In this document: positions 40,809 through 44,983 of the stretch, piece after piece | Layout: each line of letters begins with the position of its first letter | Position numbering within the stretch: the first letter of the stretch is position 1 | IMG/VR virus record: IMGVR_UViG_3300048058_000019 | Source: a virus | Taxonomy: Duplodnaviria > Heunggongvirae > Uroviricota > Caudoviricetes | DNA: 64,000 bases | Reading direction: 5' to 3' (one strand) | The notes under the pieces: generated by a model | What the model saw: only the letters and a program-made list of their open reading frames with translations | Databases searched by the model: none | What the model was told of the DNA's origin: nothing | Translations under genes and position numbers: made by a program

Positions 40809-41134
40809 AACGGCCCCATTTCTCTTATTCGCTGACCAACAACATGGTCATTGTAGGACCGAAGCATCCTGTAGAACTTCGGGAAGAACTCAGGATCAGC
40901 AGCAGGTAACTCTATTCCCGATTCAGGAAGGTGCATGTGTTCGAGGTTTTTTATCCACCTTACACTAGCGTCCTTAATGAGGAAAACAACGTTAGCAGTT
41001 TGGTGTTTAGGGAGATGATAGAGATATCGATACCCTAAATGCTCCCCCGTATGCCACTGACGAGGACTCGCATGAGCATCGTACTCACTCTGAGCCGCCA
41101 ACCAATCCTTGATGATCCATTGTAGGTGGATCAC
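40805..41134 (-). CDS. hypothetical protein, DPxFF-motif family member (109 aa)
   Basis: Contains LPAADPEFFPKFYRMLRSY. Confidence 0.45.
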   Translation of the reverse strand: MIHLQWIIKDWLAAQSEYDAHASPRQWHTGEHLGYRYLYHLPKHQTANVVFLIKDASVRWIKNLEHMHLPESGIELPAADPEFFPKFYRMLRSYNDHVVGQRIREMGPL

Positions 41135-42510
41135 TTATCACCAAGAACGATATTCAGGATTTCGTAGGGATCCTTTAAACCCTTCTCATACTGAACCTCT
41201 CGGCACTTCTTGATGATGGTACCGAACTCTGGCGAGGGTTTCATATCGCGCTCAAGGAGATGTCTACCCATCACGACATCCTTCTCGGGCCTCTTATCAA
41301 CGGAAATAACCCGAGCCATCCGCATGAACTCGTCGCCATGTTTGAAATCCTTGGCGAGAGCATCCGGTGACGTGCGGCCGAAGTGATCGGCGGACGACAC
41401 TTTGTAAAGCATTTCCATCGTCGTGCCAGCCTCAGCTAAACGCCGGGCGAGCTTACGATAGCCCTTCGGGCCCACATTCGACTTTGGATGGGCGAAGTGT
41501 GCCGGAGCAAGATGGTCCTTGACCAAAGCAGATACCTGCGACACCAGGGCGAGCGGCGCTCGGAGTCGCTCCAAGAAGGCACGCGCAGGTTCCATACCTG
41601 CTTCTTCATGCCCGCGAGCCCTCCACCGACCCTCCTCAAATTGGGTCGTAGCGGCCTTACCGAAATCGTGAGCCAAAGCTCCAAACATCAGCGGGAGGTC
41701 GTGCTCGGGGACTCCCGTCCGCAGTTCAGCGGCGCAGTCGATCACCATCAGAGTATGGATATAGACGTCCCCCTCAGGATGCCAAACGGGATCCTGCTGA
41801 ACATCAACGAGGTTATGGATCTCGGGAGCGATAATCCTATTGGCGTCGATTTCCTGTAAGAAGGCCACTCCTCGCGAGGGCTGAGATCCCTTGAGGAGAA
41901 GCTTGACCCACTCTTCCCAGAGTCGCTCGCCTGGAAGCTCCTTAAGAGCGTCAACAGTCGCTTTACACAAATCCAACGTCTCCGCATCCGGGCGTAGGTG
42001 GAATCGGGCAATAAACTGTGCGGCCCGCAAGATCCGAAGGGGATCCTCAACGAAGGTCTGGGGATCGGTAACACGGATGATCCTCTTACGGAGATCATCC
42101 TGCCCACCGAACGGATCGATGATCTCGCTGGTAAGAGGATCCATCGCGATGGAGTTCATCGTGAAGTCACGCCTACGCGCAGCATCTTTGATGGACATGG
42201 AGGGATCCGGCTTAACCGTGAAACCCTTATGACCAACGCCGATCTTGGAATCACGGCGGGGAACCGAGATATCAAAACCTCCAACCTTTAAGATGCCAAA
42301 AGCCCTACCTACCGCGTGGACGTCCCCAAAACGCTTCAGGGTGGTTTCGAGACGCTCCATAGGGAGCCCATAGACTTCGATATCGACATCCTTAGGAGGT
42401 AAGCCTAGAAGTTGGTCGCGGACATAGCCGCCTACAACAAGAGCTCGACCACCTTGGCGGCGGATCGAATTTGCGATTTCTTTTACTTTGGTGTCCATAT
42501 CTCTCCTCAC
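41131..42510 (-). CDS. cca: CCA-adding tRNA nucleotidyltransferase with HD domain
   Basis: N-terminal Pol-beta NTase head (GGYVRDQLLGLPPKDVDIEV), then an HD domain (HTLMVIDCAA...LAHDFGK). At 459 aa it matches the bacterial class II CCA enzyme architecture. Confidence 0.8.
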   Translation of the reverse strand: MRRDMDTKVKEIANSIRRQGGRALVVGGYVRDQLLGLPPKDVDIEVYGLPMERLETTLKRFGDVHAVGRAFGILKVGGFDISVPRRDSKIGVGHKGFTVKPDPSMSIKDAARRRDFTMNSIAMDPLTSEIIDPFGGQDDLRKRIIRVTDPQTFVEDPLRILRAAQFIARFHLRPDAETLDLCKATVDALKELPGERLWEEWVKLLLKGSQPSRGVAFLQEIDANRIIAPEIHNLVDVQQDPVWHPEGDVYIHTLMVIDCAAELRTGVPEHDLPLMFGALAHDFGKAATTQFEEGRWRARGHEEAGMEPARAFLERLRAPLALVSQVSALVKDHLAPAHFAHPKSNVGPKGYRKLARRLAEAGTTMEMLYKVSSADHFGRTSPDALAKDFKHGDEFMRMARVISVDKRPEKDVVMGRHLLERDMKPSPEFGTIIKKCREVQYEKGLKDPYEILNIVLGDK

Positions 42511-42758
42511 GCGTAAATGTCGATGTGCTCAACAGGTTTTTCTTGCCTGACTGGTTCTGTAACTTTCTTTTGAGTCCTGCCTATATCCCATCCAAGCCAC
42601 AACGAGAACGGTATCAATGCGATCATAACCCAGAAGATGCCAAATGGCGTTTCAATCATCGGATATCTCCCTACGTGTGGTACAGCTACCCATTGGGGTG
42701 CTGTCTTTTCCAATAACTGTAGTAAGGTCCCTCGGGGCAGGATTGTTGATGCTGCCAC
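42507..42758 (-). CDS. small membrane protein (83 aa)
   Basis: TM helix IFWVMIALIPFSLWLGW. Confidence 0.4.
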   Translation of the reverse strand: MAASTILPRGTLLQLLEKTAPQWVAVPHVGRYPMIETPFGIFWVMIALIPFSLWLGWDIGRTQKKVTEPVRQEKPVEHIDIYA

Positions 42759-43282
42759 CAGAGAGTCTTACATTGTTCACACTGCGTGTCCGAAGGTTTA
42801 AGATTGACAAACTTTTTGATTACGTCACCAATTTGGGTAAGACTATCTGGATGAGCAAGATTAATTGTTGTGTCTCCGATATTGAGAGCTTTAGCTATAA
42901 GCCCATTTTGGATTTTAAAACAGGCTTCATTCTCAATAGTCTGAAAGGTTAGTTCTGGATTGACATGAGGAATACTGATATAGAAGGTGTAAACCTTGAG
43001 ATATCTCGCCCAGCCTCCACCTCTAAAATTAACGGCGTCTTTCAATCCTGCTTGATTAATAGCAAGATTCATGACCCGCAGATATTCATTGTATCTACGA
43101 GCGCCCATATTGACAGTTGACTCACGCTCCACGATCTCGTGGTTCTCGATCTTAGAATCCAACATCTTAGCCCCTGGCTTGAGAACCAGATACCGCTTAA
43201 CTGCTTGAATTGGATCCTGGTTTAGGTCTGTAGCTGGACATTCGAATTCCAGCGTGAGTTTAATTCTGCGGGCTTTTCGCAT
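42686..43282 (-). CDS. hypothetical protein (198 aa)
   Basis: Minus-strand ORF; C-terminal CEQCK...CPEG. Confidence 0.5.
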   Translation of the reverse strand: MRKARRIKLTLEFECPATDLNQDPIQAVKRYLVLKPGAKMLDSKIENHEIVERESTVNMGARRYNEYLRVMNLAINQAGLKDAVNFRGGGWARYLKVYTFYISIPHVNPELTFQTIENEACFKIQNGLIAKALNIGDTTINLAHPDSLTQIGDVIKKFVNLKPSDTQCEQCKTLWWQHQQSCPEGPYYSYWKRQHPNG

Positions 43283-43309
43283 GACAATCCTTGATAATAA
43301 GACGCCGCC

Positions 43310-43519
43310 TTAGATGTCCCACCTAAACCACTGGCAGAGGTAATTTGTACGTTTATCTACCTTATGCTTCTTCTTCAGCATCTTGTAATGCTTCTCAGCT
43401 TCGGCATCAGTGACACAAGGGTGGGTGTAATGCTTAGATTTTGCCGTCTTGCGCCATGGCCAGACGATGAAGAAGTAGCACATAGGTTTCTTCTTCTTTG
43501 ATTTCCTCTTTGACATCAA
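43310..43519 (-). CDS. small basic protein (69 aa)
   Basis: Minus-strand ORF. Confidence 0.35.
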   Translation of the reverse strand: MMSKRKSKKKKPMCYFFIVWPWRKTAKSKHYTHPCVTDAEAEKHYKMLKKKHKVDKRTNYLCQWFRWDI

Positions 43520-43773: not shown

Positions 43774-44027
43774 GAATGAAGTTGATCAAAGAATTTAGGG
43801 GCGGCTGGATGGAGTTCAATCGTGAATGGCCACTCATTCGCAGTGTCCTCCCCAACATGCGTCCTCGCCATTCCAGCATTCCATTTAGCGACATTGACCA
43901 ATCCATCTGGAGTTTCCATGAGCGAAGTCTCACCAATGTGGAGGGAACCTGAGCCGCGAGGATCAGTCATCGTTACCTTATAACCTTCCTCTTCCGCCCA
44001 CATCCTTAAGAGAATCATAAGGTTCAT
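43758..44027 (-). CDS. hypothetical protein, DPxFF-like family member (89 aa)
   Basis: C-terminus HPAAPKFFDQLHSWILC. Confidence 0.4.
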   Translation of the reverse strand: MNLMILLRMWAEEEGYKVTMTDPRGSGSLHIGETSLMETPDGLVNVAKWNAGMARTHVGEDTANEWPFTIELHPAAPKFFDQLHSWILC

Positions 44028-44419
44028 TGAACACCCGGAATCAAGAACTTTTCTCTCTCCTGGCGGAAGATAGTCTTCGTGCCATCCATGTCGTATGCCT
44101 TGGCGATAAAACCTTCACCATAGAAAGTGATGGCGTCCTCGATTTCGGCGTTATAGTGAGCCGCATCGGGACATTCTACAAGCGTCCAATCTCCTTCGGC
44201 ATAGGTGAGGGTGAGGAACTTGGTCTTATTGACCCAAACCCCGAAGTAGTGAGCATCCTGGTCCGTATCGAACTGCTCCCAGCCCTCTGAGGTGAAATCG
44301 TCAGCGAAGTCGACGGCATATCGTTCGCTGGGGAAAAACATCCGACGAAGTGTGCTCCCACGTTTATTGGTTGTGATTTCCTTCTTCTGCATCAGCTTGA
44401 CGAGTGTGGCGACTTTCAT
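44024..44419 (-). CDS. hypothetical protein (131 aa)
   Basis: Minus-strand ORF. Confidence 0.45.
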   Translation of the reverse strand: MKVATLVKLMQKKEITTNKRGSTLRRMFFPSERYAVDFADDFTSEGWEQFDTDQDAHYFGVWVNKTKFLTLTYAEGDWTLVECPDAAHYNAEIEDAITFYGEGFIAKAYDMDGTKTIFRQEREKFLIPGVQ

Positions 44420-44548
44420 TTTCTCCTCCTTGACTTATGAAATTCTCCGCTTCTTTCCTTGTAGTAAAAGAAGCCGAATAAACAATGGCGGGGCTTCCGA
44501 TGAGGATAAAAGCGTCGAAGAACGCATTTTCTCCAATCCAGGTTTTGG

Positions 44549-44902
44549 TCATTTCACATATTTCCTGCCGAGGGTCTTGCGAAGGAGAGACTTCTCCTCG
44601 TCCATGAATTTCTGATGGCTCTTGTGTTCTCTTTTAGTATGACCTCGCAAGAAGGACATGAAGTCTTTCAGTCGAGCAAAGAAATTGGGGTCTGCTGCTT
44701 TCACTAAGAATCCCCAATAGGAACAAGTCACTTCATCTTCGTGAATCACCAGAATATGAATGGAGTTCGCCTTTCCTGGAGGCGCGATGTAATATCTCTT
44801 GTTATGGAGACCATCAAAAAACCAGCTTCGGAACTCGGTGTTACGGATCCACTTCTCGATCATCCGTGAGAGAGTGATTTCTTTCGCCATCTCTTCCTCC
44901 AT
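44549..44902 (-). CDS. hypothetical protein, DPxFF-motif family member (117 aa)
   Basis: Contains VKAADPNFFARLKDFMSF. Confidence 0.45.
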   Translation of the reverse strand: MEEEMAKEITLSRMIEKWIRNTEFRSWFFDGLHNKRYYIAPPGKANSIHILVIHEDEVTCSYWGFLVKAADPNFFARLKDFMSFLRGHTKREHKSHQKFMDEEKSLLRKTLGRKYVK

Positions 44903-44906
44903 GAAA

Positions 44907-44983
44907 TGGTGGGCCTGGAGGGACTCGAACCCCCAACCAACGGATTATGAGTCCGCTGCTCTAACCAGTTGAGCTACAGGCCC
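44907..44983 (-). tRNA. tRNA-Met (anticodon CAU), elongator type (could alternatively be a tRNA-Ile2 read via lysidine)
   Basis: Reverse complement folds as a cloverleaf: GGGCCTG-TA-GCTC-AACTGGTTA-GAGC-A-GCGGA-CTCATAA-TCCGT-TGGTT-GGGGG-TTCGAGT-CCCTC-CAGGCCC-A-CCA. The 7-bp acceptor stem is perfect, the 3' CCA is encoded, and the anticodon loop is CTCATAA. G1:C72 is paired and the anticodon stem lacks the triple G-C run, so it is not a bacterial initiator. Confidence 0.85.

Follow-up and report, generated by a model that had tools for sequence, protein, structure and literature searches.

CCA-adding enzymes and tRNAs of the Ile2 type are both already well known in large phages, and the supply of an AUA reader by a phage-borne gene is a classic case. 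In jumbo phages, the combination of an RNA ligase, a polynucleotide kinase, an RlaP-family nucleotidyltransferase and a CCA-adding enzyme has already been described as an RNA-repair system, and the CCA-adding enzyme is the second most common end-restoring nucleotidyltransferase in such repair (Iyer et al. 2021, PMC7824862). A cellular protein with the same architecture as the enzyme discussed here, Rv3907c of Mycobacterium tuberculosis, has been shown to be a CCA enzyme with an HD-dependent phosphatase activity, and such activity is also cited for Escherichia coli Cca (PMC10673834). The present analysis concerns a 64-kb stretch of viral DNA (IMG/VR record IMGVR_UViG_3300048058_000019; the whole stretch is referred to below as the window) and two genes on its minus strand. 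One (41131–42498) encodes a predicted CCA-adding tRNA nucleotidyltransferase that carries an HD phosphohydrolase domain C-terminally; the other (44907–44983) encodes a tRNA with the anticodon CAU which, judged by its identity elements, is a lysidine-dependent AUA reader of the Ile2 type. The best explanation, to which a probability of roughly three in four is given, is that the window forms part of a 384-kb jumbo phage's early-type, single-strand gene block and holds in these two independent and ordinary translation-support genes. Every enzymatic step and every purpose in that explanation is something that we infer.

The enzyme is recognized by Pfam, NCBIfam and PHROG models, by its motifs and by an AlphaFold model. 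The open reading frame (ORF) at 41131–42510 contains the PolyA_pol head (E 2.1e-19), the PolyA_pol_RNAbd region and the HD domain, all of which exceed the curated Pfam cut-offs, and the protein matches phrog_2244, annotated ‘tRNA nucleotidyltransferase’, with an E value of 1e-74. The start has been corrected: the product on record (P0001, 455 residues) begins at the ATG at 42498 and not at the in-frame GTG at 42510, which overlaps the stop codon of the upstream ORF. The nucleotidyltransferase head (42073–42441; PF01743, residues 24–146) carries motif A of the form GGYVRD...DVD, found as GGYVRDQLLGLPPKDVD at residue 23, followed by the flexible loop and by motif B (RRDFTMN, residue 109), both motifs being detected by regular expression; motif D, the nucleotide template (EDPLRILR), begins at residue 151. 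The neck or RNA-binding region (41815–41991; PF12627, residues 174–232) includes ERLWEEWVKLL, which is of the CCA/CC-adding type. The HD/HDIG phosphohydrolase domain (41503–41766; WHPEG...IHTL...AHDFGK...ADHFGR) scores 29.9 bits with PF01966 against a cut-off of 22, and 33.2 bits with the HDIG model TIGR00277 against 27.6. Its residues align with those of the HD domain of E. coli Cca, with HDFGK standing opposite HDLGK, and H240, H248, H277, D278 and D371 are invariant across 32 homologues. The AlphaFold model has a mean predicted local distance difference test score (pLDDT) of 92.8 and a predicted template modelling score of 0.90; the lower pLDDT at residues 81–100 fits a flexible loop. The fold is predicted to be of the sea-horse type, with head, neck, body and tail. 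Foldseek comparison of the model gave E values down to 1e-16 and template modelling scores of 0.6–0.7 to 6QXN, 3WF*, 5HC9, 1MIV and 3H37; the top matches in the PDB are all class II tRNA nucleotidyltransferases (CCA-, CC- or A-adding), and poly(A) polymerase (PAP) scores lower.

Members of this superfamily may add a full CCA, only part of it, or a poly(A) tail. The sequence rules of Hoffmeier et al. (2010, PMC2910056) were applied to the enzyme, and E. coli Cca and PcnB served as controls. According to these rules a deletion in the loop marks CC-adding enzymes, the motif ERxxxExxxhh marks CCA- and CC-adding enzymes, and sRxxxExxxhh marks A-adding enzymes and PAPs. The phage protein has ERLWEEWVKLL from residue 191, where the controls have ERVWKETESAL (Cca) and ARLFEESLKLL (PcnB). 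The PAP signature, [LIV][LIV]G[RK][RK]Fx[LIV]h[HQL][LIV], is absent from the enzyme (AVGRAFGILKV) and present in the PcnB control (LVGRRFRLAHV). Motifs A and B are 69 residues apart, as compared with 66 in E. coli Cca, and the loop region aligns without gaps; from this spacing the enzyme does not have the loop deletion of the CC-adders. All 32 of the aligned homologues give the same result. The profile comparison points the same way, in that among the NCBIfam models the multifunctional CCA addition/repair protein scores best (206.6 bits), followed by the actinobacterial CCA enzyme (144.4 bits) and pcnB (116.6 bits). E. coli Cca is 35% identical and collinear with the phage protein across 403 residues, including the HD domain, whereas the alignment of PcnB is confined to 208 residues of the head. 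By its sequence, the protein thus belongs to the class II CCA-adding enzymes, has an HD domain and passes the published rules for a full CCA-adder. The sequence-only reading of the window, made before any database search, had described a full-length enzyme of this kind and had named a PAP profile as the result that would speak against it; its description is upheld by domains, motifs, collinearity and fold alike.

The clade to which the enzyme belongs is uncultured and is known from metagenome contigs only, at 57–66% identity. To any enzyme from deposited phage genomes its identity is only 33–36%. Homologues are encoded in more than 500 deposited phage records. The nearest cellular enzymes are 52–58% identical and come from metagenome-assembled genomes of Acidobacteriota, Planctomycetota and Myxococcota. 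One of the closest homologues (57–58% identity; GCA_009612895.1, WBZQ01000102.1) is chromosomal and follows a bacterial tilS-hpt-ftsH-folP-glmM block just downstream, at a distance of about 5 kb or four genes. This chromosomal homologue shows that the phage took its gene from a cellular cca lineage fairly recently.

ARAGORN finds a single tRNA in the window, at 44907–44983 on the minus strand with anticodon CAT, and the Rfam model RF00005 accepts its cloverleaf with 74.7 bits (gathering score 29; E 1.6e-14), which is the sole Rfam match in the 64 kb. The sequence is GGGCCUGUAGCUCAACUGGUUAGAGCAGCGGACUCAUAAUCCGUUGGUUGGGGGUUCGAGUCCCUCCAGGCCCACCA, and its 3' terminus, ...GGCCCACCA, shows that the CCA is encoded in the gene. 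Both points, a lone tRNA and an encoded CCA, had been made from the letters alone and are borne out. The cloverleaf is of the elongator type, with A73 as the discriminator, an anticodon loop CUCAUAA with A37/A38, and an anticodon stem formed by G27.U43, C28-G42, G29-C41, G30-C40 and A31-U39. As had also been stated, position 1 pairs with 72 (G-C) and a triple G-C is absent from the anticodon stem, since positions 29–31 end in A31-U39. An initiator tRNA-fMet is ruled out by G1:C72, by C11:G24 in place of A11:U24, and by the A31:U39 stem end. The gene lies 5 nt past the stop codon of the ORF at 44989–45492 and 4 nt ahead of the next ATG. Consensus promoter and terminator motifs near the tRNA are not more frequent than in shuffled sequence; a promoter or terminator of its own was rejected on this ground and on that of the abutting ORFs. 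For the ORF at 44549–44902, whose called start is 4 nt beyond the tRNA CCA, the more likely start on the basis of sequence is a second ATG, 12 nt beyond the first and with GGAGGAAGAG ahead of it (44886–44902); if so, 3' processing of the tRNA would leave the ribosome-binding site intact.

A CAU anticodon may belong to initiator or elongator tRNA-Met or to tRNA-Ile2. Among 1,038 CAU tRNAs from 234 genomes, Silva et al. found that G3 or A3 together with C70 or T70 discriminate, possibly completely, against Met and fMet, and that C4-G69 and C5-G68 occur very often in Ile(CAT) tRNAs (PMC1635315). The TilS of E. coli requires C4-G69 and C5-G68, and G27.U43 is an anti-determinant for the Met-specific acetyltransferase TmcA (PMC2500205); the TilS of Burkholderia cenocepacia needs G3:C70 and C4:G69 (PMC11947777). 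The acceptor pairs of the window tRNA are G3:C70, C4:G69 and C5:G68. In addition, G27.U43, G30:C40 and U44 are the states of E. coli Ile2, whereas tRNA-Met has C27:G43, C30:G40 and G44. The identity to the E. coli tRNA-Ile(CAU) labelled by the Prokaryotic Genome Annotation Pipeline (PGAP) is 79.2%, as against 66.2% to metT, and in the variable columns only it is 62.8% (Ile) as against 39.5% (Met). Across 5,425 E. coli genomes the top full-length matches are annotated as tRNA-Ile by PGAP. Because of the acceptor pairs, of G27.U43 together with U44, and of the fact that among labelled E. coli tRNAs its nearest relative is tRNA-Ile(CAU), the tRNA is read as Ile2-type and not Met, and the ‘Met’ label given by ARAGORN is to be replaced. 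The sequence-only reading had left the choice between an elongator Met and an Ile2; the second half of that alternative stands, with the C4:G69 pair to which it had pointed, and C5:G68, in place, and the first half falls. Outside E. coli, Alcanivorax, Alloalcanivorax and other Gammaproteobacteria have chromosomal tRNAs with an identical 41-nt core (positions 8–48), and these relatives share the same acceptor stem and are 87–91% identical overall.

Ile2-type tRNAs are also frequent on viral contigs, at least 120 of which contain the exact 26-nt anticodon arm of the window tRNA, and among 117 viral tRNAs with this arm that were extracted, 84–91% have G3:C70, C4:G69 or C5:G68 and 98% encode the CCA. 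It had been proposed that the tRNA would bias the translation of late genes rich in AUG and AUA, but in the 129 ORFs of the window AUA accounts for only 4.3 per 1000 codons and for 8% of the isoleucine codons, and AUA-rich codon usage was rejected for these ORFs. No match to PF01171, the model used to look for a phage TilS, was found in the approximately 40 window ORFs of at least 150 residues, in the small ORFs around the locus, or in the called genes of the contig loci that were fetched. The tRNA would therefore depend on the TilS of the host.

The source is an uncultured jumbo phage. The exact enzyme product occurs on eight metagenome contigs, the longest of which (JGI 3300060479 Ga0589155_0000001) has 384,188 bp, and the window corresponds approximately to its positions 18,949–82,948 in reverse orientation. 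Of this contig 82.6 kb were read, that is, the 64-kb window and about 18.6 kb in two flanks; no further tRNA was found in the flank on either side. Nearly every long ORF in the window lies on a single strand, and the majority of the ORFs are small and without annotation. Beyond the tRNA, no DNA similarity to deposited phages was found. No host is assigned, as two lines of evidence conflict: the core of the tRNA leads to Gammaproteobacteria and the relatives of the enzyme to genomes of Acidobacteriota, Planctomycetota and Myxococcota.

The two genes lie on the same strand with the tRNA upstream, and its 3' end (44907) is 2,408 nt from the start of the enzyme gene (42498), which agrees with the distance of about 2.4 kb first noted. 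Eight small ORFs of the same strand lie between them (42507–44902, minus strand). None has a Pfam match, and the only PHROG match is that of 44024–44419 to phrog_24512, a family of unknown function; the ORFs at 42686–43282 and 44549–44902 have weak homologues in related phages. Three other contigs (L201, L203 and L204) encode CCA enzymes that are 60–63% identical, in similar phage-like neighbourhoods. In L201 and L203 a tRNA with anticodon CAU and an encoded CCA lies 8.0 and 6.4 kb upstream of the enzyme gene, respectively, on the same strand; both are of the Ile2 type, with G3:C70 or A3:U70 and with C4:G69, C5:G68, G27.U43 and U44. In L204 there is no tRNA within 10 kb of the enzyme gene. In an alignment of six phage and cellular sequences, C4:G69, C5:G68 and G27.U43 are invariant while ten other pairs covary, from which the tRNA is taken to be a maintained phage gene. 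The tRNA of L203 (3583–3658) has the T-loop UGCAAGU instead of UUCRANU, with G at position 55, in an otherwise intact cloverleaf with CCA.

Among more distant viral loci with an enzyme homologue, 13 of 46 have a tRNA within 10 kb, and the CAU tRNAs inspected in five of them (L013, L034, L038, L050 and L053) are initiator-like and not homologous to that of the window. A specific tie between the enzyme gene and the tRNA, whose proximity the sequence-only reading had noted, is thus not supported: a tight operon link was rejected in view of the intervening ORFs without recognizable function, of distances of 2.4, 6.4 and 8.0 kb or no tRNA at all, and of the 13 in 46 distant loci. The two genes seem to be linked by shared synteny and not as a functional operon, and no functional coupling of the enzyme to the window tRNA was found. 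Other RNA genes occur beside distant homologues of the enzyme. On a 157-kb viral contig (L012, 8142–19850) 20 tRNA genes, of which about nine are without CCA, form a cluster around the homologue, which is there probably needed for tRNA maturation. On three viral contigs (L045, L046 and L051, each at 14252–14677) a permuted tmRNA gene lies approximately 3 kb downstream of a distant homologue (29% identity). A tmRNA also needs a CCA end.

Several genes for the handling of RNA ends share the minus strand of the window with the enzyme. They include an ATP-dependent RNA ligase of the Rnl2-like type (30150–31211; PF09414), whose orthologue in L204 is 63% identical and is found 1 kb downstream of the gene for the CCA enzyme; a polynucleotide-kinase-like P-loop protein (AAA_33; 11477–11992; PF13671, E 1.1e-18; phrog_505); a nucleotidyltransferase of the RlaP (RNA ligase-associated Pol-beta) family (1709–2494; PF10127, E 2.1e-11; phrog_388, E 1.6e-44); and a SpoU-family 2'-O-methyltransferase (12289–12828). 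These four genes are spread across 30 kb as a dispersed RNA-repair kit. The kinase-like protein matches positions 4–150 of the 295 of the phrog_505 polynucleotide kinase, that is, the kinase half only, just as the description of a kinase-only Pnk had it. There is also a stand-alone HD_4 phosphohydrolase of 170 residues and of the RelA/SpoT-hydrolase type (27201–27713; PF13328, E 6.6e-15; phrog_990, E 3.4e-28), whose orthologue, at 48% identity, is kept in L204. It looks like a small alarmone hydrolase and is an alternative candidate for end healing; it could degrade (p)ppGpp-type signals or strip 3' pyrophosphate from tRNA ends modified by toxins of the toxSAS type. No phosphatase domain is fused to the kinase, and the candidates for a separate phosphoesterase are the HD domain of the CCA enzyme, the HD_4 protein and a LigD_N protein in the flank. 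The idea that the HD domain would complement the kinase-only Pnk could be right, but the other two are equally good candidates. That the SpoU methylase might protect repaired junctions in the fashion of Hen1 is a speculation by analogy.

DNA end-repair genes are found at 56012–56695, 61109–62443 and 37288–37914 (minus strand), at 1443–1805 of L200 and at 17066–18943 of L197; the set consists of a Pol X-like palm/thumb protein and two ATP-dependent DNA-ligase-like proteins, with, beyond the window, the LigD_N 3'-phosphoesterase (just outside) and an NAD-dependent DNA ligase. Two homologues of the N-degron adaptor ClpS are encoded at 33525–33839 and 35511–35810 (minus strand), equivalent to 16689–16988 and 18660–18974 of L002, and ClpS is also present in L204. 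At 20660–21898 and 22676–24034 (minus strand) a putative metallopeptidase (DUF2201) that includes a VWA-like domain stands beside an AAA ATPase of 452 residues (phrog_1297); the pairing resembles MoxR-VWA pairs, and the local GC content reaches 0.57.

In the explanation preferred here, that of two independent translation-support genes, the enzyme would restore C74, C75 and A76 where they are missing from tRNAs with a 3'-OH end, and the HD domain may first clear 2',3'-cyclic or 2'/3'-phosphates. It would act with the phage RNA ligase, the kinase-only Pnk and RlaP as a kit for tRNA maintenance and repair during infection. Host RNase P and 3' exonucleases would release the tRNA-Ile2 from a polycistronic transcript and trim it to its encoded CCA; such a transcript is probable because the gene abuts ORFs and promoter or terminator motifs are not in excess around it. 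Host TilS would then turn C34 into lysidine, and the tRNA, charged by isoleucyl-tRNA synthetase, would read AUA. Some points weigh against this explanation. The tRNA has G29-C41 where E. coli tRNA-Ile2 has C29-G41. The enzyme scores below the NCBIfam equivalog cut-offs (NF008137, 206.6 against 451 bits; TIGR02692, 144.4 against 438.8 bits), and CCA, CC or A specificity is not reliably readable from sequence, loop length being a hallmark and not proof (PMC3925840). With AUA rare in the ORFs of the window, it is not evident what the phage would gain from an extra tRNA-Ile2.

The last such point is an alternative purpose for the enzyme, namely that it mainly matures CCA-less phage tRNAs encoded elsewhere in the 384-kb genome and is not for repair. 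This we regard as possible but doubtful. With 82.6 kb read, the remainder of the genome may hold CCA-less tRNA genes, and there are precedents in the 20-tRNA cluster around the L012 homologue and in certain jumbo-phage groups that carry about 20 tRNAs (PMC7824862). On the other hand, the tRNA of the window and those of the L201 and L203 relatives all encode their CCA, no tRNA occurs within 10 kb in 33 of the 46 viral loci that have a homologue, and the HD domain, together with the surrounding ligase, kinase and RlaP genes, points to end repair.

A still less probable purpose, and in our judgement an unlikely one, is dedicated counter-defence, in which the enzyme would re-synthesize tRNA 3' tails that have been removed or blocked by Cas12a3, by toxins that cut the acceptor end or by toxins that modify the 3' end; the version in which the HD domain first cleans non-extendable ends is part of this proposal and shares its low standing. 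RuvC-type cuts leave a 3'-OH that a CCA enzyme can extend, which counts in its favour, as does the position of the gene among RNA-repair and other conflict-type genes. Cas12a3 cuts the 3' CCA tails of tRNAs to stop phage, and its authors describe viral resistance as ‘yet unknown’ (PMC12851939). This makes concrete the idea, present in the sequence-only reading, that the enzyme repairs host tRNAs damaged by defence nucleases, but nothing at the locus favours it specifically: the locus has no defence system linked to it, a cleavage that also takes the discriminator base is beyond CCA addition alone, the Cca of the host would do the same job, and with more than 500 phage records carrying such enzymes the idea is generic to the family. 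Last, it is very improbable that the enzyme is a PAP or a partial CC- or A-adder and the tRNA an elongator tRNA-Met, as the labels ‘poly A polymerase’ or ‘polynucleotide adenylyltransferase’ given by PDB depositors and NCBI to several enzyme homologues, the ARAGORN label and the score under the equivalog cut-off might suggest, since the PAP signature is missing, the motif is ER and not sR, the loop is undeleted, PcnB matches the head only, an HD domain is found in this enzyme as in Cca and not in PAP, and the tRNA has none of the Met-type C3:G70, U4:A69, A5:U68, C27:G43 and G44.

The practical value lies in annotation, where ‘tRNA-Met’ should become tRNA-Ile2 and ‘polynucleotide adenylyltransferase’ should become CCA-adding enzyme. 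As a representative of an uncultured jumbo-phage clade the locus is well preserved and of high confidence, and the RNA-repair set of this clade is made up of the CCA enzyme, the Rnl2-like ligase, the kinase-only Pnk, RlaP, SpoU and HD_4. If it were true that phage CCA enzymes neutralize immunity that cleaves tRNA tails, its weight would grow, although in a family-wide sense that is not particular to this locus, and the role would be the ‘yet unknown means of resistance’ that the authors of the Cas12a3 study sought (PMC12851939).

Compared with known systems, the enzyme shares with E. coli Cca (b3056, a fused CCA tRNA nucleotidyltransferase/phosphohydrolase) and with Rv3907c the order of class II head, neck and HD/HDIG body, as well as motifs A, B and D, the flexible loop, ERxxxExxxhh and the HD metal ligands. 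It differs in being phage-encoded and in falling below the NCBIfam equivalog cut-offs, and its C-terminus is about 43 residues longer than that of E. coli Cca. The phrog_2244 enzymes of Cronobacter phage GAP31, Sinorhizobium phage phiM12 and Salmonella phage PVP-SE1 belong to the same family. The tRNA has the CAU anticodon, C4:G69 and C5:G68 in common with the tRNA-Ile(CAU) of phage T4 and with bacterial Ile2 (ileX/ileY), and G27.U43 in common with E. coli Ile2. It is 57% identical to the T4 tRNA-Ile gene and 79% identical to E. coli Ile2, its G3:C70 is that of the chromosomal copies of Alcanivorax and other Gammaproteobacteria, and, set against the T4 and bacterial Ile2 systems, it is solitary and not in a cluster. 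As in the T4 Pnkp-Rnl1 pathway, in which broken tRNA is healed and sealed, a phage kinase is combined with an RNA ligase. The T4 Pnkp is, however, bifunctional, whereas the kinase of the window is without the phosphatase half, and the T4 ligase is of the Rnl1 type, whereas that of the window is Rnl2-like (PF09414). The window also adds end-restoring nucleotidyltransferases, the CCA enzyme and RlaP, to the T4 scheme, and it has in common with the jumbo-phage systems of Iyer et al. that the CCA enzyme is accompanied by an RNA ligase, a kinase and RlaP.

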